Positions 28,828-61,300 of a stretch of 64,000 nt of DNA are shown piece by piece. The stretch spans positions 2,976,001-3,040,000 of the forward strand of contig CM069140.1 in the NCBI GenBank assembly GCA_035221665.1, given 5' to 3'. Source of the DNA: Okamejei kenojei. Its lineage: Eukaryota. Within the stretch, counting starts at the first letter, position 1. Every line of letters starts with the position of its first letter. Below the pieces are notes generated by a model. It had not been told where the DNA came from. It saw only the letters and a program-made list of their open reading frames with translations, and did not search any database. The position numbers and the translations under genes were made by a program.

Positions 28828-28866
28828 AGTTATTGTACTGACGGAGTGGGAAGATGGAGCAGTGTG
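28828..28866 (+). promoter_or_regulatory. JH recombination signal sequence (23-RSS)
   Basis: AGTTATTGT + 23 nt + CAGTGTG. Confidence 0.88.
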
Positions 28867-28914
28867 ACTATCTTGAATACTGGGGTGCAGGAACCTCGCT
28901 GACAGTGACTTCAG
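28867..28914 (+). CDS. IGHJ: IgW JH segment (YLEYWGAGTSLTVTS)
   Basis: WGxG motif; phase-1 donor g|gtaaga. Confidence 0.95.
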
Positions 28915-29229
28915 GTAAGACCAATTCCTCAATTCCATTTTACCCAGTTGTGTTTTATTAATTTATGGTTTTTGCGAATTCTGTAATTGACCTGAACTCG
29001 GTGAGATATTTGGAACAATTGCACGGATTTCCCGGAGACAGGCGGGTTTCTCCAGAGTTAGAATCTACCCAGCAACAGTACATTTCCCAGTACGTTAAAC
29101 TGCCCCACAGGCTGTTCTTTCCCAGAGTCTCGCCATCATCTGCCTTCAGTCCTTCTTGTGCATGCCGACCAAGCTGGCTTTCTGGGCTCGTCCCATTGGC
29201 CATATATCCTTCTCATCCATATACCGGAT

Positions 29230-37705: not shown

Positions 37706-37939
37706 TGTAGATTGCCCTTTCATTGAAATGTCGGTGCCCTGGATTATTTTTGAACTCATCTCCACCCTCTTTAAAGTGTTGTCTGATCCTGGACAAAGTG
37801 AAGCAGTTTATCGTGGTCGGCATAATCTCATGCTGATAAATACTGAGGACACAGACTGGGAATATGTGGATCTCCTGTTTCCTCAACACAGGAGGTGAAA
37901 ATCTCTTAACATTTAAATCAATGAATCTTCCATTTCCAG

Positions 37940-38070
37940 GTGGAGAATGTTCCCGAAGCTGTTCGAAGTGTCTGCCGAAGTTCTTCTACCAGAGTAATCT
38001 CAATGTGACATTCTTAGATGGTTCTACCCGGCAGTATCATTGTTGGGCAGGAAAGTGTGAAATAAAGTAA
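37940..38070 (+). CDS. IgW: IgW short-form cysteine-rich secretory tail exon
   Basis: tttccag| GGECSRSCSKCLPKFFYQSNLNVTFLDGSTRQYHCWAGKCEIK*. Five Cys, an NVT sequon, phase compatible with C2, and AATAAA at 38391-38396. Confidence 0.88.
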
Positions 38071-40017
38071 TTGGCTGCGTATGGAATTTGTCATTCTATT
38101 ATTACAACCCATTTATAAGATTCAAATCCAACCCCTGGTATCCATTTGGATCAAAGTGTACCAGAGTGGGGGAAAATACTCAAAAGCTGCCTCCCTCTCC
38201 CCTCCACTCGTTGCCTGTATATTCATTCATTTGCAGACATTGCTGCTTCACATCCCAGTGCCACTGGCCAGATTTATTCATGCTCAGACTCTAGTCAGCA
38301 AGGACCACCCAGAGATTGCAATGCAGGAGATGTTTAAGGTAAACGGTGTGAAATGTCAAAGTGGCTCAGTAAAACATTGGGTGACCCTAGAATAAAGGCA
38401 AACTGGTGAGGCAAGATCCAGGGCTCTAACCGGTCTCCTGTCCTATACTGGCTTTGGGTGAAAACCATGGTTAGCACTAATTGCCACAGATTTATTGACC
38501 CACCTCAGCCCAAAGGAGAAACTTGGGGAATGCAAGGAATGTTGCAAGGAATGGACGTGTTTGGTTATAATCATCCAAGGATGAGCAGGACAAATTGTCT
38601 CTTGTGGAAGATACCAGTATTTGACAGCATGGAGAGTATCAGGTTTCATATGATGTGATTTCCCCCCCGACACCGCGATGGTGGCTACACGACTGTCACT
38701 GATGTGGGACGGGATTGAGCATCTTGCAAACACACATGTTTAACAATATCACATTGCTGATTAAAACAAGATTCACAAAGCAAAAACATTGTACACTGTA
38801 AAACTAGGCTTACAAATTTCCGATGACACTGCAACGACTGTCATCCACACTAATACCGCGCACATAACTATTTTTGAAAGGAATTTGCTCGCCATTTTGC
38901 TTAAAGAAGGAGGGGTTGTGAAATAGACAACATCTTACATTGACAAATGTTATGTCTCCTGTCAGACAGACACAGTGTATGACCTCTGCGTTCTACGCAG
39001 CTGAAGGCTTTGATCTCCAGACTCACTGAAAGTTTCAATTCTGACACAACCTTAATCACCCTCCACAATAAGTGTTTGAGAGCAAAATCAGCTCATGTGG
39101 TCCAAGTGACTGAGTGTGTAAACAGTGCACACACGAGAGTGGGCTGAGTGGAACTAGACTCATGATGCTGCTTCAGAAGACAAGTGGCAGTGCAGGTCAG
39201 TCAGGGGCAATGAATGAATAAATCATTCTCTTCCTCACCCAATGATTCTGAAGTGAAGCGGGAAAATACATCTAATGCAGAATTTCATCGCAATCTGCAG
39301 CAGGAGGGGGACCTTGATACTTCTAACCATTCAATGATTTGCTCTGCTGTCGCTGGAGAGTCAGCCACTAATTTGTTTCAGATAGTTTCTATCAATTACT
39401 GAAATGCCTCAAAGTCTTCACTGAATAACAGTCACACTAAACTGACACTAGTATGTGGCTGAGTGAGTTTTGGTGCTTGTGGGCAACACTGCAACGTGAC
39501 ACAGCAAGTGGTACAAAGGTGAAAGGAGTGCAGGCTTACGAGTGCCCAGAGTTGGAAGAATGACACATTTACTGAAGGTTGTGTTTGTGGTGAAGGTTTC
39601 TGAGATGGTGAGACACATGGTCAGAGTAAGGCTGCGATATCAGCATGTGACATTCTTAAACTGAGGGAATCCCAGGCTTGGCCTACAGGGAGAAAAGTTG
39701 CTTTTCTCATTCATGTTGCTCAGTATTACTAATCGATGCTGCAGGGGTTCCAAGCAAAGCACATATCAAATTGTGCCCCTGTAATGTACCAGCTGATCAT
39801 GGTGATGGGAAAGAGTCAAATCCCAGTTGATGGCTCCTTTGTTCTGTTTTTTTCAGTCAAAGCTATTTAACATGAGTTTTTCTACTATTCTGTTTGCAAT
39901 AAACGTAGTCAGTGTATAGTTTGATCTGGCATTGATCAGTCTTTCATGTGATGACATACACATCTTAAAGTTCTTTTATAAGACACCTGTTTGGATTTCT
40001 GCCCTGGCTTTCCATAA

Positions 40018-40296
40018 AAAGCCTGAGCCACTTATGCAATTTTTTCCGGCGACTGCCAGCGCGTGTCATAGTCGCAGCAGGTCGCGACTGAGGAGACTAC
40101 TCACGACCATACAGGCGACACCCTGACAACATATCGCGGAGTGAAGCCTATATGGTCGTGAGTAGTCGCCCAAAGAGTCGTACCTTGTTCGGGTCGCCGC
40201 TGGATTTTCAACATGTTTACAATTTTCGGCGACCTGCACCGACTTATGATGGGTGCTGGCAGTCGCCAAAAGAGTCATGTAAGTGGAACAGGCCCT
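40018..40296. mobile_element. Harbinger-type foldback MITE, partly degenerate
   Basis: Right TIR taagtggaacaggccct; internal sequence matches the copy at 47831-48161. Confidence 0.75.
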
Positions 40297-40352
40297 TTAG
40301 TAACAGATGAGTCTCAACTAAAATTCTGAACTTTTCCATTTCTGATCCACAG

Positions 40353-40649
40353 TATTGTCCATCTTCATTCAAAATCCTGGCATGAAAGAGATTTGGATCA
40401 ACAAGACCGCTACGCTGGTGTGTTCAGTGATCTGTAGTGATCCGAGCCATCTCACCTGGAAGGTGGGAGGAAAGGAGAGAAGTGAAGGAGTTGTGACCCG
40501 TACACCGAGCCATGAAGGCACCCGATACCCAGTGATCAGTGAGCTCCGGACCAGCGTGGAGGAGTGGACCAGCGGGGTGGAGTTTGTGTGCTTTGCCCAA
40601 CAATCTTCATCATCCTCACCAATGTCAACGCGGACCCACCATGTCAAAG
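40353..40649 (+). CDS. IgW: IgW constant exon C3
   Basis: ccacag| VLSIFIQNPGMKEIWINKTATLVCSVICSDPSHLTW...VEEWTSGVEFVC...HVK g|gtgggc. Confidence 0.9.
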
Positions 40650-41194
40650 GTGGGCAACAGATCAGTGCTTAAATGGCCGTGACAGAGAGAGCGACAGGGT
40701 ACAGAGAGGATTTACAAGGATGTTGCCTGGGCTAGAGAGCTACAGGGAGAGGTTGAGTGGGCTGGGACTCTATTCCTTGGAGCGTAGGAGGATGAGGGAA
40801 TATCTTATTGAGGTGTATAAAATCATGAGTGAAATTGATTGGATAGATGCACAGAGTCTCTTGCCCAGAGTAGGTGAATTGAGTACCAGAGAACATAGGT
40901 TTAAGGTGAAGGGGGAAAGATTTAATAGGAATCGGAGGGGTTATTTTTCATGGAAAGGGTGGTGGATGTATGAAACAAGCTGCCAGAGGAGGTAGTTGAG
41001 GCAGGGATTATCCTAACATTAAAAAAACAGACAGGGACAGGTTTGGAGGGATGTGGACCAGACACGGCAGGTGAGACTAATGTAGCTGGGACATGTTGGC
41101 CGGGGTGGGCAAGTTGGGCTGAAGGGTCTATTTCCACACTGTATCACTCTATGACTCTATGAGAGAGTTTAACATCTATTTTCCTCTGTTCCAG

Positions 41195-41512
41195 TTGAGC
41201 CAAAAAAACCTGAAGTCAGACTGCTGCTTCCAGCACACGAAGAGACCAAGCATAGCCACAAGGTCACCCTCGAGTGTGTGGTTTCTGGATTCTACCCAGA
41301 CCTCATCAACGTCACTTGGAGTAAAGACGGTGCCCTGATCTCCAACAACACCAGCGCTGCACCAACTGCTCTGGAGCAGGGGGGCACTTTCAGTGCCAGC
41401 CACTTCCTGACCATGAGTACAGAGGATTGGAAGTCAGGCTCACGCTTCAATTGTACAGTGTATCATCGTGCCTCCAACACCATCATCACGAAGGATGCGA
41501 AGAACATCCAAG
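41195..41512 (+). CDS. IgW: IgW constant exon C4
   Basis: ttccag| VEPKKPEVRLLLP...TLECVVSGFYPDLINVTW...EDWKSGSRFNCTVYH...NIQ g|gtaggc. Confidence 0.92.
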
Positions 41513-42504
41513 GTAGGCTCCTGGGATTCATTCCATTCTCCACATTGTAAACTATGCCACGCATGGGCAGCACTGTAACACGGTGCAGTCCTGTTGTGGG
41601 CTTGTTAGTGAATCTGGCCACAGAATTAATTGTATCTTTGACATTGCTTTAGTAACATGAGGGCAATCCAAGCCAGTCGACAGGCCAGACGGTGGAGATC
41701 CACGATACTCTTCTTCAAAACGGTCTTTCCCTCTGTCTTTGTACTTAATGTGAGTGGGTGCCTCAGCTGTGACAGAGTGTCCAGCAGAGCAGCTCTCTCC
41801 CTGCCCTAGAGTGGCAACAGTCAGTCTGGGCAATGTGTAGCAGCCTCTGGAACAGGCCAGCTGCAACACACAACATTCTGACAAAGCAGCAGGAGAGTTT
41901 AATTACACCTCATGGATACAAACTGCTTTTAAACAGTTGTGACTAAATGAAGGGACACAAAGTGCTGGAGTAACTCAGCTGGTCAGGCAACATCCCTGGA
42001 GGACATGGGGAAGTGAGGTTTCGGGTCGAGACCTTTCTTCATCCTACTCCTGACCACTCATGAGTATAAATAAAATAATGCCGCTGCTTCTATTTTATAA
42101 TATAAAGTGAAGAACTTTCCACTGACTGGTTAGCACGCGACAAAAGCTTATCACTGCACCTCGGTACATGTGACAATAAACAAAACTGAATTGAACATTT
42201 TTACCTCAAACATTAGCTTGATTTGCCTCTCAGAGGGAATTTTATACATTTGATTCAGTAAATAGCTGGTAACAGGTTCAGTGAACACAAAACTGTCAAA
42301 TAATGTAAAAAACTTGTTAATTCACATTGTTTAGCAAGGTTTCCTTGTGGGATCAATAGGAAGCTTCATTCCTACACCAATGTAGATATATCTCCCTGAT
42401 GTTGATGGGACCAGCATATCATTAGGTGGAGATGAGCACAAAATACTTCAGTGGCAAGCTGCTCCATCAGGGAACGATGACATAATAATTGTGATTTCTC
42501 CCAG

Positions 42505-42825
42505 ATGAATGCTCAGTTGCCCGCCCCTCGGTCACTTTAAGCAAACCTTCCTTCGACGAGATCTGGATCAACAAGACAGCCACCATTCTGTGTAAGGTGG
42601 TTCACGGTGATTTAGAGGGATTCAGGGTAACCTGGCAAGTGAATGGAATGAAGAGAGAAGACGGGGTGAAAACTCGTGGTGTAGAGAGGATCGGAGGTGC
42701 AGACACCATCACCAGCGGACTGACGGTCCCCGCTGCAGAGTGGGAGAGTGGGGCTCTGTACACCTGTGTGGTGGAGGACAAGAGTTTGCCAACACCGGAG
42801 AGCAGATCCTTGGAGAAGCCGACAG
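42505..42825 (+). CDS. IgW: IgW constant exon C5
   Basis: ctcccag| DECSVARPSVTLSKPSFDEIWINKTATILCKV...VTW...EWESGALYTCVVED...EKPT g|gtacgt. Confidence 0.92.
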
Positions 42826-43214
42826 GTACGTGTTGACAGAGGTTGGTGCGAGTCTGATCTGAGCAAATGGACAGACATATCACATCCAGCATAGAAAATA
42901 ATTGCAGGAGCAGGCCATTCAGCCCTTCAATCCTGCACAGACATTCAATATGTGCACAGCTGATCACCCATATTCAGTACTCGCTTCCTGCATTCTCTCC
43001 ATATCCCTTGATCCCTTTACCCTAAGAACTGGATCCAACTCATTCTAGCATATATCTAATAATTGGGCTTCAGTGGCAGAGAATGCCCAGGTTCACCACT
43101 GTCTGGATGAAGACATTTCTCCCCCTCACACACCTACATACCTTCACCTCAGACTGTCAACTCCTGGCCTGGATTCCCCGATATCTGAAACATTCTTCCT
43201 CTGCCTCACCTGTT

Positions 43215-44430
43215 CATAGAAACATAGAAAATAGATGCAGGAGGAGGCCATTCGGCCCTTCGAGCCAGCACCACCATTCATTGTAATCATGGCTGATCGT
43301 CCCCAATGAATAACCCGTGCGTGCCTTCTCCCCATATCCCTTGATTCCACTAGCTCCGAGAGCTCTATCTAACTCTCTCTTAAATCCATCCAGTGACTTG
43401 GCATCCACTGCCCTCTGTGGCAGGGAATTCCACAAATTCACAACTCTCTGGGTGAAAGAGTTTTTTCTCACCTCAGTCTTAAATGGCCTCCCCTTTATTC
43501 TAAGACTGACCCCTAGTTCTGGACTCGCCCAACATTGGGAACATTTTTCCTGCATCTAGCTTGTCCAGTCCTTTTATAATTTTATATGTTTCTATAAGAT
43601 TCCCCCTCATCCTTCTAAACTCCAGTGTGTACAAGCCTAGTCTTTTCAATCTTTCCTCAAATGGCAGTCCCGCCATCCCAGGGATCAATCTCGTGAACCT
43701 ACGCTGCACTGCCTCAATCACAAGGATGTCCTTCCACAAATTAGGAGACCAAAACTGTATGCAATACTCCAGATGTGGTCTTACCAGAGCCCTATACAAC
43801 TGCAGAAGAACCTCTCTACTCCTATACTGAAATCCTCTTGTTATGAAGGCCAAAATTCCGTTAGCTTTCTTCACTGCCCGCTGTATCTGCACGCTAGCTT
43901 TCAGTGACCGGTGTACAAGGACACCCAGGTCTCGCTGTACTTCCCCCTTACCTAACCTAACCCCATGGAGATAATAATCTGCCCCTTTGTTTTTGCCACC
44001 AAAGTGGATAACCTCACATTTATCTATATTATCCTGCATCTGCCGCGCATCTGCCCACTCACTCAACCTGTACAGGACACCTTACAACCTCCTAACATCC
44101 TCTTTACTGTTCACACTGCCATCCAGCTTTATCATCCGCAAACTTGCTAGTATTGCTCCTAATTCCCTCTTCCAAATCATTAATCTATATGGGAACAGTT
44201 GCGGCTCAACACCGAGCCTTGTGGCACTCCACTCGCCACTGCCTGCCATTCTGAAAAGGAGCTGTTCACTCCTACTCTTTGCTTCCTGTCTGCCAACCAA
44301 TTTTCTATCCACGTCAACACCCTACCCAATACCATGTGCTCTAATTTTAGTCACCAGTCTCCCGTGCGGGACCTTATCAAAGGCTTTCTGAAAGTTTGGA
44401 CACACTACATCCACTGCCTCCCCTTCATCA
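43215..44430 (-). mobile_element. CR1 LINE 3' fragment
   Basis: RT C-terminal ORF 43500-44066 and a typical 3' tail. Confidence 0.88.
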
Positions 44431-45098
44431 ATCCGGTTAAGAATTTAATAGTTTCTCTCAGATGCCTTTGGATTTTCTAAACTCCAGGGGATATCTAATG
44501 GATATTGCATGGACTTACAGATGGTCAGAGAGTGTGAGGGAGCAAAAGAAGATTAAACTCAGCTGATTAACCACATCATTAAAATCCCAGGTCACCACGA
44601 CAGCCTCGCCCAATACCACACTTGTTCCCACAACGTGGAGCTTCTTATCCTTCCTATCCGATTCCCTCTCATCCTTCTATATTCCAGAGTACACAAGCCC
44701 AGCCACTCCATTCTCTCAGCATATGACAGTCCCGCCATACAGAGAACATGTACGTTTTTGGAGTATGGGAGAAAATCTGAGCACCCGGAGAAAACCCACG
44801 CAGTCACGTATAAACTCCATACAGGCACCACCCATAGTCGGGATCAAACCCATGTCTCTGGCATTGTAGGCAGCAATTCTACCGCTGTGCCATCATACCG
44901 CCCTGTATAATGCACCAGAGGCATAATTTCTATTCCATACATCCCTACAATGAGCAGAAAGGAAAAGCCTTTAGTTTTAGGTGAACTGAGGTCCCTCAGG
45001 ATGTAAACGGTGTCCATGTCAATATAAGATTGGAATGTATTGGGTAAGTACAGAATTACCGACAGATTCAGTCTAACTCGGGTTCTCTCTGTTCCCAG

Positions 45099-45484
45099 AT
45101 GGAGTTGAGAGTCGTCCTCAAGTCTACCTCCTCCCCCCTTCATTGGATGAGGTGGAGACGGATGAGACGGCCACCTTGACGTGCCTGGTCACCAGATTCT
45201 CTCCTGCTGACATCTATGTGGCCTGGATGGCCAACGACACCCTTCTGAAGACAGGGATCGTGAACCAGCCCGTGACCAAGGACACCAGGAATGGGTGGAA
45301 CACCATGACCAGTCAGTTGAAGGTTTCTCCAGAGGAGTGGAACAGTGGCACCACCTTCTCCTGTGTTGTGGGACACGGCTCCATCACAACCAGCCTATTC
45401 AGAAGCATCAATAAATCTCACAACAAACCCACCCTGGTCAATGTCTCACTTGTTCTGACTGATAGCTTTAAATCTTGTGTGTAA
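45099..45484 (+). CDS. IgW: IgW constant exon C6 with long-form secretory tailpiece
   Basis: ttcccag| DGVESRPQVYLLPP...TLTCLVTRFSPADIYVAW...EEWNSGTTFSCVVGH...KSHNKPTLVNVSLVLTDSFKSCV*. NVS sequon and penultimate Cys, as in IgM-type tailpieces. Confidence 0.94.
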
Positions 45485-45784
45485 CATGATTCATTTCTCA
45501 AACACTTGTTTTGTTCATTTCTGGATTTATTAACTGACCCAGAGGATGATGGGTTAGTTCCCTAACACATCATCAAATTGTGAACCTTTGTAAATCATTA
45601 AAAACATAATACCACACGAGATACAAATTAAGCTACAGCCATGATTCACCACAAATGTCTGAGCTTCTGGATACATTTACAGAACTTTTTTTGCCATGAT
45701 TTTAATCAGAAACAAATTTTAATCCTGTATGGGATCACACGAGGTATTAAATCTATGTATGTGTCAATGTACCAATACAAGTTC

Positions 45785-45790
45785 AATAAA
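45785..45790 (+). terminator. PolyA signal of the long secreted form
   Basis: AATAAA followed by a GT-rich downstream tract. Confidence 0.7.
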
Positions 45791-47480
45791 TGTGATGTGA
45801 AAAAGGTTTTGTGTGCGTGTCTGTGACTGGTGTGTTTTGGGTGGCAGTACATGGGTAGCTTGGGATGTGAGGTGTGCACATTCTAGGAGAAGCACATTCT
45901 GGAGAAAGAGGTGTTGTTGGATCAATGTGTCCAAAACCTCCCACCAATTGGTTGTTCTCACACCCACGCCTGACCAGTTGAAGATAGAGATTGATTGTGG
46001 TTGTTGGCCATTAACTCCATTATCACTGTGCCATGCGACTGTCAGGGTGACACAAGGTGAACTGATTGGACCATGGTCTTTCCTAGCCCAGCTGTGACAA
46101 TGTACCTGATGCAAGCTCCCACACGGAAACCAAATCTGGCCAGATCTCCTGCGTCAGGTAGTCCTTACTTTCTCCCTCTTTCCCCTCCCCTTCCCAGCTC
46201 TCCCAACAGCCCACCTGTGTTTAGCTGTTTGGGTTCGGGGTAAATATTAGCTCAGAACACTCGTGGTCATGTCGTGGCATTGCTGACATCTACCTGAGAA
46301 GCACCTCCTTAAAGCCTCATGACAGCAGCTTTCATGAGGTGACATTGCTCACACACTGAGCCACACGTGACATCTGTGTCTAACAAGGGGGATGGTTGTT
46401 TGAGGAGTCTCTGTCCTCAGTGGGTGTGCACGGATGATGTTGAATAAAAGAGACAACTCATCATTGGTAACTCTTCTATTCCAATGTTACATTTAAACAT
46501 CTGCCTGTCGGTGCTTAAAGTAAATCTGTTCTTGAATCTGCTGCTACGTGCTTTCAAGCTTCTTGTATCTTCTGGAGAGGGAGTAGAGACAATGACTGGG
46601 ATATGAGGGTTCCTCGATGATGTTGGCTGCTTTCCAGAGGCAGCGTGAAGTGTCGATGGTGGAAGGAGTAATGGTTGAGAGTGGGGGATGCAATGTCCAT
46701 TGTGTGGGCCGAGGGTTGTTTGGTTTATTGTCACGTAGACCGAGGTACAGTGAAAATGCTTTTTGTTGTGTGCTAACCAGTCACCAGAAAGACTATATAA
46801 TTACAATAAAGCCATCCACAACATACAGATACATGATAAAGGGAATAATGTTTTGTGCAAGGTAATTGCTTGATAACAGCTGGGAAGAAACTGTCCCTGA
46901 ATCTGGAGGAGTGCGTTTTCACACTTCTATACCTTTTGCCTGATGGGAGAGGGGAGAAGAGAGAGTGGACAGGATGCGACTGGTCCTTGATTATGCTGCT
47001 GGCCTTGCCGAGGCAGCGTGAGATGCAAATGGAGTCAGTGGAAGGGAGGTTAGTTTGTGCGATGATCTGGGCTGCAACCACAATTTGCTGCCATTTCTTG
47101 GATGGAACTGTTCACAAACCATACTGTGATGCATCCGGATAAAGTGCTTTCCATGGTGCACTAAAATTAAATACCAATAAAGAATTGAACAGCATGTAGT
47201 TTTATTTGTGTTAGTGTTATTGTATTTGTATAAGTGTTGTGGAGAATGTATTGTGTTCGATTATAAGAAATTAGAGAGTGCGCATAATTTCAAGGGTCAA
47301 ACTCTGTATAAATACTGTGGAATTTCAGAGCAGCAGGTAACTGGGACTGTGCTGCCCTCCTTGTGCACACGTCAATAAAGTGAGTCTGGAAAATGAATGC
47401 AAGTCGTCAGAGTCCAGTTAGTCGGTGACGACAACACCAGACTTTGTCTGGTTTGTAAGCTTCCTATTTCTCATCTGCAG

Positions 47481-47783
47481 AATTGTCTGTCTTTATCCAA
47501 ACCCCCTCCATTGAAGAGATTTGGATCAACAAGACCGCTACTGTGGTGTGCGTGGTAATGGGTGCTGATCTGAGCCATGTCCAAATCTACTGGCAAGTGA
47601 GCGGAAGGGAGAGAACGACAGAGATGTGACCCACCAAACCGAGAGGAGAAAGGACCCAAGACAGAAGTGAGCAGTAAACTCCGGTGCAGTGTGGAGGAAT
47701 GGACCAGTGGGTGGAGGTTGTGTGCTCTGCCCAACGATCTCCATCGTCCTCACCAGCGTCAGCACGGATAGAAAGTGCCAAAG
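47481..47783 (+). pseudogene. IgW: Duplicated C3-like exon (C3'), three single-base deletions as assembled
   Basis: ctgcag| ELSVFIQTPSIEEIWINKTATVVCVV...IYWQVSG / EVSSKLRCSVEEWTSG / VEVVCSAQ...SAK g|gtgggc. Shares the exact run gagatttggatcaacaagaccgctac and the donor context with C3. Confidence 0.88.
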
Positions 47784-47830
47784 GTGGGCAAGAAATCGGC
47801 AATGATATGGCCAACATTAGTTTACCATGA

Positions 47831-48161
47831 AGGGCCTGTCCCATTTACGCGATTTTTTCGGCGACTGCCGGGACCCGTCATAGGTCGGTGAAATTTTTCA
47901 ACATGTTGAAAATCCAGCGGTGACCAGAAAGACGTTATGACTCTTTGGGCGACTGAGCAGACTACTCACGACCATACAGGTGACACCCTGGCGACATGTC
48001 GCGGGGTGAAGCCTGTATGGTCATGAGTAGTCGCCCAGAGTGATACCTTGTTCTTGTCGCCACTGGATTTTCAACATGTTGAAAATTTTTGTCGACCTGT
48101 AAACCACCTATGATGGGTGCCGGTAAGTCGCTGAAAAAGTCACGTAAGTGGGACAGGCCCT
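47831..48161. mobile_element. PIF/Harbinger foldback MITE
   Basis: TIRs agggcctgtccca / tgggacaggccct, 3-bp TSD TGA, and an imperfect palindrome across the whole element. Confidence 0.85.
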
Positions 48162-48203
48162 TGAGGAAGAGGGTCTCACATCTCCTTTGCTCCTCTGTTC
48201 CAG

Positions 48204-48521
48204 TTGAAACAAAAAGTCCCAAGGTCAGACTGCTGCCTCCAGCTCTTGAAGAGACCAAGCATAGCCACACAGCCACCCTCGAGTGTGTGCTCTCTGGTTT
48301 CTACCCGGACCTCATAAACGTCACTTGGGAGAAAGACGGAGCCCCGATCTCCTCCACCACCAGCACTACACCGACTGCTCTGGAGCAGGGTAGGACATTC
48401 AGTGCTAGCCACTTCCTGACTGTGAGTTCAGATGATTGGAAGAAAGGCTCAGTCTTCGGCTGTACAGTGTCTCATCCCCCCTCGAACACCAGTATCAGCC
48501 GGGAAGTGAAAAGCTTTCAAG
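48204..48521 (+). CDS. IgW: Duplicated C4-like exon (C4'), intact
   Basis: Same length as C4 (318 nt) and same acceptor (tcctctgttccag); 75/106 aa identical by hand count; canonical C-W-C retained; donor g|gtacgg. Confidence 0.9.
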
Positions 48522-50347
48522 GTACGGTGCTGGATTCACTCTAATGATCACATCTTTTGCCCCGTCACAAAAATAGAGCCAGGCAAGTTTAGCACTGAAG
48601 GACAGGTGTTTGCAGTGTGTCAGTGAGTGAGTGGTAACCAAGAGGCCTAACCAAGAGGCCTAAACTAGAGTCAAGAAGAGTCAAGAGTGTTTTATGTGTA
48701 TATGTCCTGAACGGGACAAGGAAATTCTTACTTGCTGCAGCACAACAGAATATGTGAAATATGTAAACCTAGCGCATAACGGGGGGAAGAGAAAAAAGAA
48801 AAAGTTCAATAAATAACAAATAGTGCAAATAATAAACAATAATATAGTATTTTGCAGTTTCAGAGCTCAGAGCTTATTCATTGTGTTTAATAGCCTGATG
48901 GCTGCACGGAAGAAGCTGTCCTGTTCCTGAATGTTACAGTTTGCAGGCTCCTGTAACGTCTTCCCTGATGCAATTGTGAGATGAGTGTGTGGCCAGGATG
49001 GTGTGAGTCCTTGATGATTTTGGCTGCCTTTTTGAGGCAGCGACTATGATAGATCCCTTTGACGGTGTGGGGAGGTCAAAGCCGGCGATGAACTGAGCAG
49101 TGGTTACAACTTTTTGTAGTCTTTTTTGCTCCTGGACGTTCAAGTTGCCGAATCAGGCCACGATGCAACCAGAACTAGGACACAATGCTAAATATTTCTG
49201 TGCTTTCACAACTTCAGTTTATTCCAAAAACTCCTCAGTAGCCAGGACACTGAGAAGACCAAGCCTGCTGTTCTTCAAAATTAGTGTCACAGGGTCAGTC
49301 CACTTATTGTGTGTTGGCCCTCTGTGTGTGGCATCTCAGACTAGTTGTCTTGACTGCTAATATGAAGAGTGGGGTCGGGTATTTGCACTTGTATAATTAT
49401 TTGTCGACACTGGAACGGAGGTCCATCAGAAAGTCCGTTGTGTGGATGGAGCTGGGGTGGTAACAAGCATGTTGGCATTGGAGTGATCATGGAGCCATAG
49501 ATTTCTACAGGACGGTAACAGGCCCTTCGGCTCAGCTTGCCTTTGCCAACCAAGGTGCCCGATCTACACTCGTCCCGTTCTCCCCGTGTTTGGCCCAAAT
49601 CACTGATCATCTCATGTCCATAAATTGATAGGAGCAGAATTAGGCCATTCAGCCCATCAAGTCTATTCTGCCATGGCTGATCTATCTCTCCCTTCCTAAC
49701 CCCATTCTCCTGCCTTCTCCCCTTGACAAGGGACCAATACTAATCAAGAATCGATCGATCTCTGCTTTAAAAATACCCATTGAGTGGGCCTCCACAGCCT
49801 TCTGTGGCAATTAATTCCTCAGATTCTCTACCCTGTGAGTAAACAAATTCCTCCTCATCTTCCTAGAGGAACCTCCTTTAATTCTGAGGCTATGGTCCTC
49901 GACCTCTCCCACCAGTGGAATCATCCTCTTTACATCCGCTCTATCCAGGCCTTTCACTATTCGTCCTATCCATGTACCTGTCCAAATAACATTTAAACAT
50001 TGTTTTATAGTCATCTGCGTGAACTACCTCCTCCCGCACCCACATTCTATGTACCCAGTGCCCTCAGTGTTGAAAAAGTTGCCCCTCAGATTCCCATTAA
50101 ATCTGTCCCCCCTCACCTTAAACCCATGTCCTCTGGTTTTTGATTGCCCTACTCTGGGTATAAGGAACCTGGTTGTTGTATATCTGTGTGTCTAACCATC
50201 ATCCTGCACTCTGTCAAATGTGGTTATCTCCTCTGTGATATTGTGCCGATGGTAACAAGACCACGTTGTGGTTAGTTGAGCAGTTGCTACTCTTGAGGAA
50301 AAGGAATATCTCTCCAGAACGTCACTGCTATGCTGTGCCTTGTGCAG

Positions 50348-50427
50348 ACTGGTGTTCCAGGGTTCACATCGGTGTACATTACTCAGCCAGGGAGAGAACG
50401 TCAATTGAGAATGAAAATGGATTCTAG
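50348..50427 (+). CDS. Candidate third secretory-tail exon, possibly derived from a C5 5' end (DWCSRVHIGVHYSARERTSIENENGF*)
   Basis: Acceptor ccttgtgcag, phase 1. D-x-C-S start like C5 (DECS). A paralogue of the C6 3'UTR with AATAAA lies downstream (51092-51097). This is inference. Confidence 0.4.
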
Positions 50428-51091
50428 ACCAAATCCATATCAAACATAACTTTTTGGTTAAACATAACTGGTTGCATCATGGCTTGGTTCGGCAACTTGA
50501 ACGTCCAGGAAGGGAAAAGAATGCAGAAAGTTGTGACCACTGCCCAGTCCATCATCGGCTCTGACCTCCCCACCATCGAAGGGATCTATCGCAGTCGCTG
50601 CCTCAAAAAGGCTGCCAACATCATCAAAGACCCACTCCATCCTGGCCACACACTCATCTCTCCGTTGCCATCGGGAAGAAGATAAAGGAGCTTGAAATTT
50701 GGAACATCCAGGTTCAGGAATAGGCAATTCCCCAGAGCTATCAGGCCATCAAACAAACTCTGAACAATAACAGCCTATTGCACTTTTATCTGTTTATTTA
50801 TTGTGTATATATATATGGTCTATGGTCTATAGACACACTGAACTTGTATCTCCTGTTCTGTATTATGTTTACATATTCTGTTGTGCTGCAGCAAGCAAGA
50901 ATTTCATTGTCCTATCTGGGACACGTGACAATAAAACTCTCTTGGCTCTTGAAACATCAATTACCAAAGTTTCAGAGAACTTGCAGTTTGTACGAAAACG
51001 TCTTTGTGTCAGGTCTGATCCTGCTAGAAACCTGTAGAGACCCCACGAGAGGCTACATGTGTGTTTGTGTCAATGTAACCTATCAATGTTC

Positions 51092-51097
51092 AATAAA
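51092..51097 (+). terminator. PolyA signal within a paralogue of the C6 3'UTR
   Basis: 51028-51097 resembles 45721-45790, sharing tgtgtcaatgta and gttcaataaa; GT-rich sequence follows. Confidence 0.55.
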
Positions 51098-51769
51098 GAA
51101 TAGACATGTAGTGTTGGAGTTGGTGTTCCCTGTTGGTGCGTTTTGGGAGGTGTTGCCAAGTTGGAGGGGAACAGGTGACCTGGATCTAAGATTGCACATT
51201 GTCTTTCACTCTATATATTTCTAGAGATTATGTAGATATACATGTATTAGTCTCCTCCGTCCAAAGAATAGAACATTCTGAAGGAGGGTCTCAACCTGAA
51301 ACGCACCCATTCCTTCTACCTTGAGATGCTGCATGTCCTACAGAGTTACTCCAGGAATTTTGTGTCGATCTTCGGTATAAACCAGCATGTGCAGTTCCTT
51401 CCCACACATTCCTGATGAACCTTTCTGGTCTTTAAAATATTCAAAGCTAAAGAATAGGGAAAGGTGTTTTGATCATCTTTGTGAATGCATTTGATAAACT
51501 CATTCAGAAAGTGGAATGTTACAGAAGGAAGGGCCAGTGATGAGCTTTGCCTGTGGCAATGTGTTCAGGGCTGAAGCTATTCACTATATTTATTGATAGT
51601 TGAGATGTCGGATCGAAAGCCACACGATCAAGTGTGCCACTCACACAAGGCAAACAGAAGTGTCAAAAGAGCATCTGGATAGTGTCCTTGCTGAGATAAG
51701 GATGCATGAAGTGAATGGGCAAATCTGTGGCAAGAACCAGCTCTTTAAATGTGTGTGGACCACACCCAA

Positions 51770-52404
51770 ATAGACAATAGACAATAGGTGCAGGAGTAGG
51801 TCATTCGGACCTTCGAACTAGCACCGCCATTCAATGTGATCATGGCTGATCATCTACAATCAGTACCCCGTTCCTGCCTTCTCCCCATATCCCCTGACTC
51901 CGCTATCTTTAAGAGCCCTGTCTATCTCTCTCTTGAAAGTATCCAGCCTCCACCGCCCTCGGAGGCAGAGAATTCCACAGACTCACAACTCTCTGTGTGA
52001 AAAAGTGTTTCCTCATCTCCGTTCTAAATGGCTTACCCCTTATTCTTAAACTGTGGCCCCTGGTTCTGGATTCACCGAACATCGGGAACGTGTTTCCTGC
52101 ATCTAGCGTGTCCAAACCCTTAATAATCTTATATGTTTCAATAAGACCACCTCTCATCCTTCTAAACTCCAGACTATACAAGCCCAACCCCTCCATTCTC
52201 TCAGCATATGACAATCCCACCATCCTGGGAATTAACCTTGTAAACCTACGCGGCACCCCCTCAATGCCCTTCCTCAAATTAGTCTGGAAGTGGCGGCGCT
52301 GCCTGGCAGCTGCGGCTCACCTGCAGTCCGTCTGTTTTTTTCTTTTCTTTTTGTCTTCTTTTGTATGTTTTAGTTAGAATTTTGGTTTATTAGGCTGTGT
52401 ATGT

Positions 52405-52456
<52 letters not shown>

Positions 52457-53280
52457 GAGAAACAGGGTTTTAGTCTCTCCCTTCGGGGGGATGCGACTTT
52501 TCTTGTCGTGTCCCCGTCACCATCTCCGTCTGTGCTGAGGCCTAATGGCGGAGCTGGCGGCCTCGGAGCTATGGCGGCGTTTAAGCGTTCCAGCGGCGGC
52601 GGCGGCCCGGCTTTAGAGCTGCGGTGCTCCAGCGGTGGCGTTCCAGTGGCGACCCGGCTTCAGAGCTGTGGTGCTCCCAGCGGTGGCGTCCCAGCAGTGG
52701 CGTTCCAGCGGCGACCTGGCTTCAGAGCTGAGGTGCTCCAGCGTTCCAGCGGCGGACCCTGCTTCAGAGCTGTGGCGGTGTTCCAGCGTTCCGGCAATGG
52801 CGGTGGCGGCAGCCCGGCTTCGGAGGCTCGGCCGCGGGCCTAGTGGACGATAACATCGGAGGCCTAGATCGCCTCAGCGCAGAGGGAGAACAAGAAGGGA
52901 AGAAGACAAAGACTTTAAGACTTTTGCCTTCCACCACAGTGAGGAGGTGGCTGGTGACCTCACTGTGGTTGATGTTAAATATGTGTTTATTGTGTGTTTT
53001 GTTTTTTATTATATGTTATGACTGCAAGGTAATGAAATTTCGTTCAGACCGAAAGGTCTGAATGACAATAAAGGATACTTTACTTACTTTTCTTTACTTT
53101 ACTTTATTAGGGGACCAAAACTGCACACAATGCCCCAGGTGTGGTCTCACTAGGGCCCTGTACAACTGCAGAAGGACCACTTTGCTCCCAGACTCAACTC
53201 CTCTTGTTATGAAGGCCAACATGCCATTCACTTTCTTCACTGCCTGGTGTACCTACCTGCATGCTTACTTTCATGATGCT
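51770..53280 (-). mobile_element. CR1 3' fragment split by a nested + strand non-LTR insertion (~52283-53105)
   Basis: CR1 sequence cctcaaattag|gggaccaaaactg is interrupted with ATTAG duplicated. The insert is GC-rich with internal tandem repeats and ends in acaataaa plus a (TACTT)n tail. Confidence 0.75.
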
Positions 53281-54204
53281 GAATAAGTTGTCATTTAGAA
53301 CGCTAAAGGAAGATTTGTTTGATGTTTTCACAAAGTTAATGGGAGCTAACGGAATAGATTTTCCTGGGAAGATCTATTTACACACCTCCACATTCAGAGC
53401 CAATTTCTTCCCAGCTGTTATCAGGCAACTGAATCATCCTACCACAACCAGAGAGCGGTCCTGAACTACTATCTCCCTCACTGGAGACCCTCGGACTATC
53501 TTTGATCGGACCTTACTGGCTTTACCTTGCACTAAACATTAATCCTTTATCATGTATGTATACACTGTGAATGACTCATTTGTAATCATGTTTTGTCTTT
53601 CCGCTGACTGGTTAGCACGCAACAAAAGCTTTTCACTGTACCTCGGTACACGTGACAATAAACTAAACTAACTAGATGAGGAGGAATTATTTTTTAGTTG
53701 TGTACAGTGCTCCCTGGGTTACAAATGATCTCCCTGATTTATGGAGATCCAACTTTATACAAAGTACAGGGTCTAAAACTTAGAGGCAGCCATGCTATAT
53801 GGAAGTGGGTCATGGTGTCTGAAGAACGGTCTCGATGCGAAACCTCACCCATTCCTTCTCTCCAGAGATATTGCCTGTCCCACTGAGTTACTCCAGCTAT
53901 TTTGTGTCTATCAGAGGTTCATGGAAGTTTGGAATTGCCTTCCACAGTTCGCATTTGGTTCCAGGTCTGAAGGTGATTTTAAATCTGAGATTGCAGAGTT
54001 TGACTATACGAGATGTTAATGGATGTGGGGTAAAGTCAGGTCAGTGGAGCTGGTGATAGATCTCCACATATCATTGAACGGTGGAACTGACCCAAGCCTC
54101 CTGTCTTCCTGTCCTCCTGTTGTCTTCATTTTATTCACACGTTGTTGATCTTTACAAAACATCCGCGGCAAACTAACTGTCTCACCTTCTCATTTGTCCT
54201 GAAG

Positions 54205-54347
54205 CCGGCACAGACTTTACAGGAGAGGAAGGGAAGGCGGAGCCGGGGGACTTGGATGGAGATGACAATGTGGTCACAGTTGCTGCCTTCGCCATCCTGT
54301 TCATTATCAGTTTTTACCTCTACAGTACCTTCGTCACCGTTGTCAAG
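54205..54347 (+). CDS. IgW: IgW transmembrane exon TM1
   Basis: Acidic spacer AGTDFTGEEGKAEPGDLDGDDN, then VVTVAAFAILFIISFYLYSTFVTVVK (CART-like F..LF..S...YST.VT). Phase-0 donor |gtaaac. An alternative in-frame acceptor exists at 54213. Confidence 0.9.
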
Positions 54348-54459
54348 GTAAACGATGACCAACGACAGAGATACTTTGTGACCCCCCACACTGTGACCGT
54401 CCATTCCTCACTACACTGTTCTCTGACTCTCCAATCCTCACCACACTACGGCCAACAGA

Positions 54460-57400
54460 TGATGCAGTCTGGGACAATAAGGGGCGGGGTGTCAAATGGG
54501 ATAGTCAGGGATGGAGTTAAAGGGAAAGGGAGTGAAGGGATAGTTAATGACCCCAGAATTAACTGGAAAGAAAGCTCACAAAGGGATAGGAGAGTATGGC
54601 CAAGTGTAATAGGGATTGATGTGAAAGGTGAAATGCGTAAGGAATTAAAAGTATTGTATATGAATGCGCGAAGTATAAGAAGTAAAGTAGATGAGCTTGA
54701 GGCTCAGTTAGAGGTTGGTAGATATGACATTGTGGGGATTACTGAGACGTGGCTCCTGGAGGATCGGGCTTGGGAACTTAATATTCAGGGTTATACATCC
54801 TATAGAAAGGACAGGCAGGTGGGCAGAGGAGGGGGGGGGGGGTTAGCTCTGCTAGTGAGGAGATGGAAGGGATGTAATTCAGTCCCTTGTGACTGGTAGA
54901 GTCACTGTGACTGAGTTGAGGAATTGCAAAGGCAAGAAGATACTAATTGGTGTTATCTACAGACCCCCAAATAGTAGCCCGGATGTAGGGTGTAAGTTGC
55001 AGCAGGAGTCAAAACTGACATGTAACAAAGGTAATGCCACTGTGGTGAAGGGGGATTTCAATATTCAGGAAGACTGGGAAAATCAGGTTGGTTCAGGACC
55101 CCAAGAAAGAGAGTTTGTAGCGTGCCTCCGAGAAGGATTCTTAGAGCTTCTAATGGAGCCGAGCAGAGAAAAGACAATTCTGGATTTAGTGTTGTCAAAT
55201 GGACCAGATTTGATAAGAGAACTAGAGGTAAAGGAACCGCTTGGAGGTAGTGATCATAATATGATTAGTTTTAATCTGCAATTTGAGAAGGAGAAGGTTA
55301 AATCGGAAGTGTCAGTGATGTAGTAGAACAAAGGGGACTATGAAGCCATGAGAGAGGAGCTGGCCAAGGTAAACTGGAAAGGGATCTGAGCAGGAATGAT
55401 GGTGGAACAGCAATGGCAGGAATTTCTGGGCATAATCCGGAAGACGCAGGATCATTTCATTCCAAAAAGAAAGAAAGATTCTAAGGGGAGTAGGAGGCAA
55501 CCGTGGCTGACAAGAGAAGTTAGGGATAGAATAAAACTAAAAGAAAAGATGTATTACACAGCAAAGTGCAGCTGGAAGCCAGAGGATTGGGAAACTTTCA
55601 TAGGACAACAGAAGGAAACAAAACGGGCAATACGGGCCGAAAAGATGGAGTACGAGGGGAAGCTGGCCAGGAATATAAGGAAGGACAGTAAAAGCTTCTT
55701 TGATATGTTAAGGGTAAAAGAATAGAAAAGTCAAATGTGGGTTCCTTGAAGACAGACACGGGTGAAATTATTATGGGGAACAAGGAAATGGCAGAAGACT
55801 TCAGATCTATCTTCACTAAGGAAGACACACACAATCTCCCAGAAGTATTGGAGGACATAGGATCTAAGGGGATAGAGGAACTGAAATACATTTTCATTAG
55901 GCGAGAAATAGTATTGGGTAGGTTTAGTGGGGACTGAAGGATGAATAAATCCCCGGGGCCTGATGGACTGCATCCCAGGGTCCTCAGGGAGGTGGCTCTA
56001 GAAATAGTGGATGCATTGGTGATCATTTTCCAATGTTCAATAGATTCAGGATCAGTTCTTGTGGATTGGAGGATATCTAATGTTATCCCACTTTGCAAGA
56101 AAGGAGCGAGAGAGAAAACGGAGAATTACAGACCAGTTAGCCTGACTTCAGTGGTGGGGAAAGATGCAGGTTAATTATTAAAGAGGTAATAATGGGGCTT
56201 TTGGATAGCAGTAAAAGGATTAGTCCAAGTCAGCATGGATTTATGAAAGGGAAATGATGCTTGACTAATCTTCTAGAATTTTTTGAGGCTGTGACAAGTA
56301 AAATGGATGAAGCGGAGCCAGTGGATGTAATTTTCTAGACTTTCAGAAAGCCTTTGATAAGGTCCCGCACGGGAGACTGGTGACAAAAATTAGAGCACAT
56401 GGTATTGGGGGTAGGGTGTTGACATGGATAGAAAATTGGTTGGCAGACAGGAAGCAAAGAGTGTGAGTGAACGGGTCCATTTCAGAATGGCAGGCAGTGG
56501 CGAGTGGAGTGCCGCAAGGCTCACTGTTGGGGCCGCAACATCAATATATATTAATGATTTGGAAGAGGGAATTAGGAGCAACACTAGCAAGTTTGCGGAT
56601 GGTGCAAAGCTGGGTGGCAGTGTGAACTGTGAAGAGGATGTTTGGAGGTTGCAGGGTGACCTGGACAGGTTGAGTGAGTGGGCAGATGCGTGGCAGATAC
56701 AGTATAATATAGATAAATGTGAGGTTATCCGCTTTGGTGGCAAAAACAAGGGGGCAGATTATTATCTCAATGGGGTTAGGTTAGGTAAGGGGGAGGTACA
56801 GCGAGACCTGGGTGCCCTTGTACACTAGTCACTGAAAGTTGGTGTGCAGGTACAGCAGGCAGTCAAGAAAGCGAATGGAATGTTGGCCTTCATAACAAGA
56901 GGATTTCAGTATAGGGATAAAGAGGTTCTTCGGCAGTTGAATAGGGCTCTGGTAAGACCACATCTGGAGTATTGTGTACAGTTTTGGTCTCCTAATTTGA
57001 GGAAGGACATCATTGTGATTGAGGCAGTGCAGCATAGGTTCACAAGATTGATCCCTGGGATGGCGGGACTGTCATATGAGGCAAGATTGAAAAGACTAGG
57101 CTTGTATTCACTGAGGGTTAGAAAGATGAGGGGGGGCTCTTATAGAAACATATAAAATTATAAAAGGACTGGACAAGCTAGATGCAGGAAAAATGTTCCC
57201 AATGTTGGGCGAGTCCAGAACCAGGGGCCATAGTCTTAGAATAAAAGGGAGGCCATTTAAGACTGAGGTGAGAAAAAACTTTTTCACCCAGTGTTGTGAA
57301 TTTGTGGAATTCCCTGCCACAGAGTGCAGTGGATACCAAATCACTGGATGGATTTAAGAGAGAGTTAGATAGAGCTCTAGGGGCTGGTGGAATCAAGGGA

Positions 57401-57525
57401 TATGGGGAGAAGGCAGGCACGGGTTATTGATTTGGGATGATCAGCCATGATCACAATGAATGGCGGTGCATGGCTCGAAGGGCCGAATGGCCTACTCTTG
57501 CACGTATTTTCTATGTTTCTATGTT
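54460..57525 (+). mobile_element. Near-complete degenerate CR1 LINE ORF2 (AP endonuclease + RT) in the TM1-TM2 intron
   Basis: YMNARSIRSK, VGITETWL, GVIYRPPN, GDFN, GSDHN, KSPGPDGLHP, NYRPVSLTS, SKFADGAKL and a CR1 3' tail. Confidence 0.92.
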
Positions 57526-57716
57526 CCTATGGGACCCTTCACATCCCCCTGGGCTTTGAAACTTTCATCTTGTCTACTCCTCTACTCCTGTCCTCTTCTC
57601 CTGTCCTCTGGGCCTCGATACAGCAAACATTCATAGAACGTTGGGTATTTGGGGCAATGACCCTGGGCTCAAACAAGGAAATCAAACAAACATTGTATTC
57701 ATGTCAAATGTTGATC

Positions 57717-58012
57717 GGTACGGTGGCGCTGCGATAGAGATTGCTGCCTTACAGCGCCAGAGACCCGGGTTCCATCCTGACTACGGGTGCTGTCTGTACG
57801 GAGTTTGTACGTTCTCCCCGTGACTTGCATGGGTTTTCTCTGACATCTTTGGTTTCCTCCCAGGTTTGTAGGTTAATTGGCTTGGTGTAAATGTAAAAAA
57901 TTGTCCCTAGTGTAGTGTAGTGTAGTGTAGTGTTAATGTGCAGGGATCGCTGGTCGGCGCAGTCTCGGTGGCTGAAGGGCTTGTTTCCATGCTGCATCAC
58001 TAAACTACAACT
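57717..58012 (+). mobile_element. V-SINE (HE1-like)
   Basis: tRNA-like head, V-domain core and an internal (GTGTA)n tract. Confidence 0.75.
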
Positions 58013-58333
58013 AACAGGGTACTCCCGTATCGGAAACCTGAGTCCAAGTACGGAACCTGTCTTCAGCCCACAACTGGTATTCAACCGTGTATCCCTTAGA
58101 GTTGACCTGGGCCACTAATGAAAGACCACCTGTCCATGAGGGTCCATCTCCTACAAACATGCACAGACCACCAATCCTCGAGGGTCCTAGAAAAGGTGCA
58201 GACCCCCTGTCCATGAGGGTCCATCTCTGAGGTTAAGGACAGACTGTCTGTTATTTAGGTTGCCTGTCCCACAGATCACCATCTGTGCGCACCTTGCCGC
58301 ACACAATGTCTGACTCTGCTGTGTATATTACAG

Positions 58334-58345
58334 GTGCAGCAATGA
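58334..58345 (+). CDS. IgW: IgW TM2 exon (VQQ*)
   Basis: ctgac branch-like motif, then ...tattacag|GTG CAG CAA TGA, phase 0 matching TM1. AATAAA at 58513-58518 and 58852-58857. Confidence 0.7.
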   Translation: MQQ

Positions 58346-61300
58346 CCAGCCGACACACACGCCGCATTCACTCTAGAGATCGCCATGCAGCTGCTGACGT
58401 TGGCAAATGGAGTCTCCCTGTCTTCACTCACTCGCTCGGCAATCCAAGGCTGCCGCACTGCAAACGCTCATTTCAGGAGATAAAACTTGGAAATGCACTG
58501 TGGATGCTGGGGAATAAACCGTGTTGGGGATTGAGGGGGGTGGGTGGGGGGGAGTGGGGGTGTGGGAGAGGAAGGCAGATTTATATTGGGAAAGGGAGCA
58601 GGGGATGGGAATGTGATGAGTGAAGGAGAAGAGGGGAGGTGTGGGAGGGGGAGGGATGCGCTGATATTGTGGAGAAAGGGGCATGGGGTGGGGAGAAGGA
58701 ACAGGAAGCAATGTGGAGGAAGGGGGGGGGCGATGCTTGGGGACTTGCTCAATCACATTTTGTAAAGCAGAAGTTGTTTAACTCATTGTCTGCAGCTTAT
58801 TTTCAATTTTTCTGCTGCACTGCATGTTTTTCATTTGAAATTACATACATAAATAAAAGAAAATAACAAGAACATGAAATGTTTGGAGTTGATCATCACT
58901 TTACTCATCACTATTTAGGGAATTCAGCTGTGGATGTTGCCCAGGACTTTTATGAGGATGTTGCCAGGAACTTTATGTGGATGTTGCCCGGACTCGAGGG
59001 AACTATAGGGAGAGGTTGACTAGGCTGGGTCTCTATTCTATGGAGCGTAGGATGAGGAGGGGTGGACCTCATAGAGGTGTAGAAAAATCATAAGAGGAAT
59101 AGATCGGGTAGATGCACAGAGCCTTTTGCCCAGAGTAGGGGAATCGAGGACCAGTGGACATGGGTTCAAGGTGAAGGGGAAAAGATTTAAAAGGAATCCG
59201 AGGGGTAACTTTTTCACACAGAGGGTGGTGGGTGTGTGGAACAAGCTGCCAGAGGAGGTAGTCCATCGTTTAAGAAACAGTTGGACAGGTACATGGATAG
59301 GACAGGTTTGGAGGCATATGGATCAAGTGCAGGCCCATATTTACTTCCCTTTAACAGGGTGGCACAGTGGTGCAGCAGGTAGAGGTGCTGCCTCATATAC
59401 TCGGGTATGATCCTGACCTCAGGTGCTGTCTGTGTAGTTTGCATGTTCTCCCTGTGACCGCGTGAGTTTTGTCCAGGAACAGTCTGAAGAAATTCCACAT
59501 CACATCAAGCAACTGGGAGCTCATTGCACTGGACAGGCACTCCTGGAGGAAATCCGTGCAGGAAGGGAGCTGCTCGTCACAAAATGAATCTACGCCGTGT
59601 CGCAGAGACAAAGTGACAGCACGGGTAAGGAGAGAGAGAAGGGGGCACCACGACTACCAGCCGCCGCCAGTCTCCACTGCCCACGTTGCACAAGGAGTGT
59701 GGATCGCGGATCGGCCTCTACAGACATCTACAGACCCACAAGTGGACGACCCTATGGAGAGGAGAGGGTAGTCATACTCGTTTAGAGTGACCGCCGATGA
59801 TGATGATGATTTGTCCAGGTGCTCTGGTTTTCTCCCACATCCCAAAGACATACGTGTTTGTACGTTAACTCAAGCTAACTAGGTTATCCCACATTCTTAT
59901 CTATTCCCTGCACAACAGTGTAATTTACAAAAACTGTGGTCAGCGTGCACTTGGAGGGCAGAAGGGCCTATTTCCCTACAATTGTGAATTAGGGGAGGGC
60001 ACCACCAAATGGGGAATTAGGGGAAGGCACCATCAATTATGTTTGTTTGCTCAGGCCACTGTGATCTGTAGATGCTGGTTTACACTGATGATACACACAA
60101 AATGCTGGAGTAACCCAGCAGGACAGGCAGCATCTCTGGAATGGGTGATGTTTCAGGTCGAGACCCTCTCCCGACTGTCTGAGGAAGGGTCTCGACCCGA
60201 AACATCCCCCATTCCTTCTCTCCTGCCTGTCCCACTGAGTTACCTCAGATTTTTGTGTCTAACTTTGTTTGACCCGTCTTTAATAAATTTACATTACCTT
60301 GTGAAAGGCCACTTTCGCAAAGTTTCCACTAGTGGGAGATAGTTAAAGGACGTTCCTTTAGGAAGGAGATGAGGAGGAATTTATTTAGTCAGAGGGTTGT
60401 GAATCTGTGGGACTTATTGCCACAGACGGTCATGGAGGCCAAGTCAACGGCCTTTTTATGGCAGAGATAAATAAATTCTTGATTAGGACGGATGTCAGGG
60501 GTTATGGGGAGTAGGCAGGAGAATGGTGTTGAAAGGGAAAGATAGATCAGCTGTGATTGAATGACGGAGTAGACTAAATGGGCCGAATGGCCTAATTCTG
60601 CTCTTATCACTTACGACATTTCCATGGAATCTGAATCTGCATGGACTTTGCATTTGGTGTTTCTTGTTAAGAAATGGTTGCTAAGCTTTGAAGAGCAAGG
60701 TCGGCTTGGCGGAGCGAGTGTGAAGGAGACAGGAGACGGTTGATGGGTGAATGGCCTTTATTCCTCATTGGAACCGGTTACAACAGCCCCTTCCCTGCAC
60801 TGATCTCTCACCCTGGCAGCGACCCTCAACCCCGACCAACCCCCCGACCTCAGTGCAACACACTGCTGACTCCTGACATTTTACATTCAGACTGACGCCT
60901 GACCTCTTCCCTCGTCCGAGCCCAGCCCTTTAACCTGACTCCTACCACTTCACCTCTGAACTGGCTAGGTCAGGATATCAGGGTGGTCGTGTCTCGGGGG
61001 TAGGAGCCAATCACTCTGACCAGCTGAGCTCTAAACCCCCCTTATCTGACCCCTGACCCTGAGATTCAGTGCAGGACGGGCCTGAGCTCGGGAAGTATAC
61101 TAGATGTGACCTTTTGACATTGGACTCCCACCTCTGACCCCCGTGACCCTGTTTACTGTGACCCCTGACCCCATCCCAGTTCACTGGCAGCAGGTGGTGC
61201 AGGCTGGGTTGACCCTGGGCTGGATGTCAGAGATGAGAGGTTGACCCTGACCGTGACCTGGGGGTCAGTGGAGGAGGTTTGTCGATGGCCGCCTGTTAGC

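Follow-up and report, generated by a model that had tools for sequence, protein, structure and literature searches.

Probable decayed 3′ end of an IgW constant-region duplication in the C4′–TM1 intron of a skate heavy-chain cluster

Judged from sequence, the stretch at 50348–51160 of the window (64,000 nt of Okamejei kenojei, assembly GCA_035221665.1, contig CM069140.1, positions 2,976,001–3,040,000) is probably the decayed 3′ end of an old IgW duplication that reached from C3 to the 3′UTR. It belongs to the intron that separates C4′ from TM1 and would be removed by splicing, while the duplicated C3′–C4′ pair probably serves membrane IgW. The original prediction had read the stretch as a candidate third secretory terminus. 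As it stands, it is an ordinary decayed duplicate. The more solid by-product of the analysis is a second C3–C4 pair that follows the secretory terminus and precedes the TM exons, an arrangement apparently common to batoids.

The IgW cluster in the window

The window contains one IgW heavy-chain cluster of a batoid, skate-like fish, with the exon order leader-V, two D, J, C1, C2, Cys-rich short tail, C3–C6 with tail and polyA signal, C3′, C4′, TM1 and TM2. As in elasmobranch IgW, V-D-D-J segments with RSS are followed by six or more C1-set exons, a Cys-rich short secretory exon follows C2 and a canonical tailpiece is fused to C6. Named IgW proteins (records from Squalus, Ginglymostoma, Triakis and Carcharhinus) are the nearest matches of the C domains, and a Leucoraja gene model is 87–98% identical to C3, C4 and C5 of the window.

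All exons given here lie on the plus strand, as does JH. The VH exon (27489–27790) is one base short near CDR2 as assembled, with a reading frame that shifts past the FR2 Trp motif; a comparable break occurs in the VH of cluster B (see below). It is followed by two D segments with RSS (~28057–28075 and 28456–28475, limits set by eye), JH (28866–28916), C1 (34684–34993) and C2 (36187–36502). The first secretory terminus is the Cys-rich short-form exon at 37940–38072, recognized by a nurse-shark tail profile (E 2.9e-7). The open exons C3 (40353–40649), C4 (41195–41512) and C5 (42505–42825) lead to C6 with its canonical secretory tailpiece (45099–45484), the second secretory terminus, whose 3′UTR (45485–45850) carries AATAAA at 45785–45790 and then a GT-rich stretch. 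Further downstream lie C3′ (47481–47783), C4′ (48204–48521; open, with intact splice sites), TM1 (54205–54347) and the coding part of TM2 (VQQ and stop, 58334–58345). TM1 has two in-frame acceptors, with AGs 9 nt apart (54196–54214), so that the exon may start at 54205 or 54214. Gene models of Pristis and Mobula start TM1 one codon earlier, at a place where all five copies found in the present genome read CTG.

Four sets of public contigs, presumed to be RNA, were compared with 40200–58950; repeats swamped the matches, and with 2834 joints and 206,700 pieces outside the listing, the absence of a listed joint at 50348 carries no weight either way. Among the matches listed, contigs are spliced from C3 to C4 and from C5 to C6, and the match of one spliced contig ends at 45804, just past the C6 polyA signal. 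One low-depth contig runs over the C4′ donor into the intron; it may derive from pre-mRNA or from DNA, and the sets include further intronic contigs of the same depth.

Two repeat features were also recorded. A palindromic MITE-like element occurs twice (84% alike), just ahead of C3 (40084–40306) and in the C3′–C4′ intron (47949–48171), and a LINE copy at 31800–32170 is broken up repeatedly by a short C-rich motif with a CCGG end, perhaps through assembly noise.

The duplicated block and the putative mini-exon

Along the DNA, C6 with tail and polyA signal is followed by C3′, C4′, a C5-like remnant, repeats, a copy of the C6 3′UTR, TM1 and TM2. The proposal that the duplicated block ran from C3 through the 3′UTR and later lost most of C5′–C6′ agrees well with this arrangement, in which C3′, C4′, the start of intron 4′, the C5-like remnant and the UTR copy occur in the expected order.

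A paralogue of the C6 3′UTR had been placed at 51028–51097; it is a true paralogue and extends to 51160. When 51028–51160 was aligned to 45721–45846, the local score of 296 exceeded those of all 1000 shuffles (mean 124, maximum 202), and the similarity between the two UTRs is significant. A profile of four copies finds the UTR copy as well (E 5e-6), and the alignment takes in the polyA signal (AATAAA, 51092–51097) and its GT-rich flank. The LINE insert reported between the mini-exon and the UTR copy was likewise recovered, as a LINE-like 3′ fragment at approximately 50467–50950 on the plus strand that is shared by all five genomic copies. Its own AATAAA at 50930 precedes the copied signal; between the C4′ donor and 51092 there are four AATAAA/ATTAAA motifs, of which one falls within the terminal exon as proposed.

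Among domain profiles, 49338–49436 matches only that of C5, and does so in five of five copies (best E 0.0035; 0.09 for the window copy); by DNA profile, the E value is 7e-4 in copy E and 0.0096 in copy F. This decayed C5-like remnant corresponds to the C-terminal third of the domain (profile positions 68–105) and has no donor site. It lies 0.9 kb upstream of the mini-exon, which consequently fails colinearity with C5 in the duplicated block; given a simple block copy, the mini stretch would occupy the position of intron 5′ or C6′.

The mini-exon itself (50346–50427) has the phase-1 acceptor that had been described, with AG at 50346–50347 opening the 26-aa frame DWCSRVHIGVHYSARERTSIENENGF and a stop at 50425–50427. 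On a crude matrix built from 11 real acceptors of the locus, whose own scores range from 1.2 to 8.2, the acceptor at 50348 scores 3.0 and ranks 18th among the 344 AGs of that intron.

Its proposed derivation from C5 is unproven; what resembles the C5 start is the peptide read with a frameshift. Compared with the C5 start of the window, the frameshifted peptide reaches a BLOSUM62 score of 30, a value attained by 2 of 1342 intronic AGs, its own among them. Against a profile built from 10 C5 starts it scores 24.7 and beats all 567 background AGs (copies A and B), while the scores of copies E and F are matched by 17 and 166 of the 567, respectively. The resemblance depends on one frameshift and on 11 nt that copies E and F lack, at a site picked from an intron with 344 AGs. 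The DNA of the mini-exon and the C5 start share 39 of 82 positions, which is chance level (78 of 224 background AGs do as well), compared with 65/85 for the starts of C3 and C3′ and 67/85 for those of C4 and C4′; in a shuffle test, pairwise DNA homology between mini-exon and C5 was not found (p 0.64–0.95). Since the frameshifted peptide outscores the 567 background AGs, an origin from C5-type sequence may still apply.

Other derivations that were tried were not borne out either. A decayed C6 tail with proximal UTR gave a pairwise p of 0.22 and anchored p values of 0.13–0.67, and the C6-UTR profile did not extend across the LINE site. The C6 start aligns ungapped and is colinear after a one-base shift, yet 10 of 567 background AGs score equally, and identity in DNA is no higher than expected by chance. 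Neither a second Cys-rich tail nor a copy of the short-form UTR gave a match. Copy E of the mini stretch weakly resembles C3/C3′ starts (matched by 1–2 of 224 background AGs), whereas copy A does not.

Five genomic copies and competing readings

A genome search found five copies of the mini stretch with the UTR copy and five TM1 exons, one such copy lying ahead of every TM1, and all five copies of the stretch sit in IgW clusters. The 26-aa frame occurs, as assembled, in one of the five, the window (copy A). In cluster B, CAG replaces the stop, the frame continues into the LINE for a total of 50 aa, and a deletion has removed the UTR copy together with its AATAAA. Copy C is riddled with indels and reads 51 aa as assembled, with TAG present. 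Copy E is 11 nt shorter and has 30 aa in another frame, in a cluster from which C3′ and C4′ are absent; copy F has GG in place of the acceptor AG. The stop of the mini frame is a C-to-T state found in two of five copies. The phase-1 acceptor, short frame, stop and downstream polyA signal expected of a secretory exon are thus all present in the window copy only.

Among copies A, E and F, substitutions amount to 6.0–9.0% in the mini frame and 3.0–7.6% in the UTR copy, against 5.8–7.7% in the neighbouring LINE and 4.0–6.8% in the intron ahead of TM1, so that in these three copies neither the mini frame nor the UTR copy is conserved in excess of its surroundings. Against the reading as a leftover, the least diverged element measured is the UTR copy in the A–E pair (4 of 133). 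The assembly is indel-prone here (clusters A and B differ by 17 indels and 4 substitutions over 959 nt), which blurs all comparisons between copies.

We consider the AG and the 26-aa frame likely by-products of drift. A functional third terminus, in which C4′ would be spliced to 50348 and a 26-aa, one-Cys tail would end at the duplicated polyA site of a four-C-domain secreted IgW, is very improbable. The window copy does have the right phase, an acceptor, a stop and, further on, an AATAAA flanked by GT-rich sequence; the acceptor score falls inside the range of real acceptors, and nurse shark does secrete a four-domain IgW (P0055, P0056). Against this, no cluster in the assembly unites open C3′, open C4′, acceptor, 26-aa frame and polyA signal, and the mini frame shows no homology to either known IgW tail type, the Cys-rich tail or the canonical tailpiece with its penultimate Cys (tail profiles, C6 profile and anchored test, p 0.13–0.67). 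Sequence resembling it is also absent from the 46 proteins screened. In protein searches, no C4′ from this species was found that continues into a tail; a single short match (P0072) is 65% identical, and its end looks like unspliced sequence. Equally improbable is the variant in which the stretch is a newborn secretory exon of one young cluster pair, where a recent stop and the 11-nt difference would have created the one-Cys tail in front of an orphaned duplicate polyA site, and C3′–C4′ would be secreted as well.

Somewhat less improbable, though still unlikely, is that the UTR copy acts as a weak intronic polyA site. Transcripts would end there or at earlier signals, after read-through of the C4′ donor or cryptic splicing, and would yield minor secreted forms with an unselected tail. 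The copied AATAAA is retained in four of five copies, read-through of the C4′ donor would give the short open tail GTVLDSL, nurse-shark P0054 ends C4 with a 7-aa tail that resembles intron read-through, and the low-depth contig described above crosses the same donor. However, intronic contigs of equal depth occur elsewhere, the conservation of the UTR copy is like that of the neighbouring intron, and the cluster that lost it, B, has the cleanest C3′ and C4′ copies. The strongest of these competitors, unlikely as well, treats the entire downstream block including C3′ as a pseudogene, with real C3′ indels and a membrane IgW that joins C2 or C4 directly to TM1. The assembled C3′ is interrupted by two in-frame stops, cluster E lacks the block, and C4 is joined to TM in shark membrane forms (P0039, P0057). 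But the four C3′ indels sum to zero and occur in none of the four remaining C3′ copies, indels outnumber substitutions locally and V is broken in both A and B, and C4′ is intact and 87% identical to a Rhinoraja copy. A decayed duplicate with a C3′–C4′ pair probably still in use remains the reading we prefer.

Additional clusters came to light in the same search. In clusters B and C, the C3′–C4′ pair is doubled in tandem, 2.0–2.1 kb apart, and both pairs of B are open (L009:741-3809, L014:4835-7995, G000:C10). A cluster at G000:C10:5.06-5.11 Mb (L027-L030, L045) has C2–C6 and a partial C1, with no C3′, C4′ or TM in the fetched stretch; as assembled, a stop at residue 122 cuts its C6 tail short and removes the last Cys. 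An orphan piece at G000:C15:61.17 Mb (L019:7949 - L020:3058) comprises a partial C4′ along with the remnants, the UTR copy and TM1; no IgW exon precedes it in the 47 kb retrieved. Cluster E (L034:7195-7546, G000:C376, minus strand) contains a VDJ that is open and joined in frame, and that has additional Cys in CDR1 and CDR3; the join may be germline, or it may be a somatic one captured in the DNA that was sequenced. Two more distant clusters at G000:C15:56.94 and 57.05 Mb (L038-L043), whose last C exon is ~60% identical to C6, are likely IgNAR.

The C3′–C4′ pair and known IgW forms

C3′ is not open as assembled, a point on which the original prediction was silent: four one-base indels relative to the two open cluster-B copies produce stops at 47627 and 47675. 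Because they cancel out, are missing from the other C3′ copies and lie where indels exceed substitutions and V is also short in A and B, these indels are likely assembly or consensus errors. C4′ is 82% identical to C4 in DNA and 70% in protein, and dN/dS is 0.44 for C4 versus C4′, which favours a pair in use, whereas the 0.89 for C3 versus C3′ speaks against it.

A tree was built from 28 C3–C4 pairs of 11 fetched proteins and two pairs from this genome (midpoint root, sharks apart). The cluster-B C3′–C4′ pair groups with copies from Rhinoraja, Narcine and Pristis (96/95), apart from the C3–C4 lineage of the same taxa (86/88). C3′–C4′ is a batoid-wide paralogue lineage, found in skates, electric ray and sawfish. 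The grouping dates the duplication early in batoids, with the caveat that gene conversion could disturb the placement. Gene models from Rhinoraja (XP_078251664.1, P0070) and Pristis (P0002) show the order C6 with tail, C3′, C4′, TM and belong to the same paralogue clade as the window pair; both are automatic and uncurated, and such models also wrongly read through the C6 tail. P0070 enters TM1 with AGTD, as the window acceptor at 54205 would. Against this order, the C3′–C4′ type lies upstream of C3–C4 in another Rhinoraja model (P0022). A literature search that excluded most subscription journals found no paper on a post-secretory C3′–C4′ pair in batoids.

That open frames and splice sites have persisted for so long, while C5′ decayed and C6′ vanished, argues for use of C3′–C4′, and since TM1 is the sole intact exon downstream of C4′, membrane IgW is the likely user. 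The duplicate would have landed behind a working secretory terminus, where a second C5–C6-tail was redundant, and for this reason C5′, C6′ and the UTR copy would have decayed. C3′ and C4′ would have stayed open because they could be spliced to TM1 once the C6 polyA site was passed, giving a membrane IgW such as C1-C2-C3′-C4′-TM. The pair is nevertheless dispensable and can be lost, as cluster E has TM1–TM2 but neither C3′ nor C4′. If membrane IgW does use C3′–C4′, the receptor of a B cell and the antibody that it secretes would have different membrane-proximal constant domains.

IgW is a gene class with C-exon duplication and numerous splice forms, and Zhang, Du Pasquier and Hsu reportedly described in 2013 a nurse-shark IgW with two interspersed secretory exons. 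The four-domain secreted IgW of nurse shark (AGY29600.1 = P0056, AGY29602.1 = P0055) has a third secretory terminus behind a C4 domain, like the one proposed here. Its tail, however, is 53 aa long, rich in Cys and paralogous to the short-form tail. The mini frame is unrelated to this tail, whose profile matched only the short-form exon in the window (37936–38067), with no match downstream of C4 or C4′. Both a third terminus and four-domain secreted IgW are thus already known, and by sequence comparison 50348–51160 is not that exon. The eight-domain IgW of sharks (AGY29605.1, P0059) has a duplicated C3–C4 pair, as here; unlike the window, its extra pair lies ahead of C5–C6, is species-specific on the tree and lengthens the secreted chain.

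A layout comparable to that of the window occurs in a lobe-finned fish. According to PMC5192425, coelacanth IgW1 has seven secreted-form exons, then tandem C3-C4-C5 duplicates and then two TM exons, so that duplicated C exons lie between secretory terminus and TM in both. Coelacanth IgW1 has four C3-C4-C5 repeats, whereas the window has one C3′–C4′ pair (two in clusters B and C) with decayed C5′, C6′ and UTR; by the tree, the duplication here is a separate, batoid one. The coelacanth layout also allows such a difference between receptor and secreted antibody. As many as seven successive C3–C4 pairs occur in gene models from sawfish, manta rays and bamboo shark (P0001-P0015), which exceeds the six to eight C exons that reviews report.
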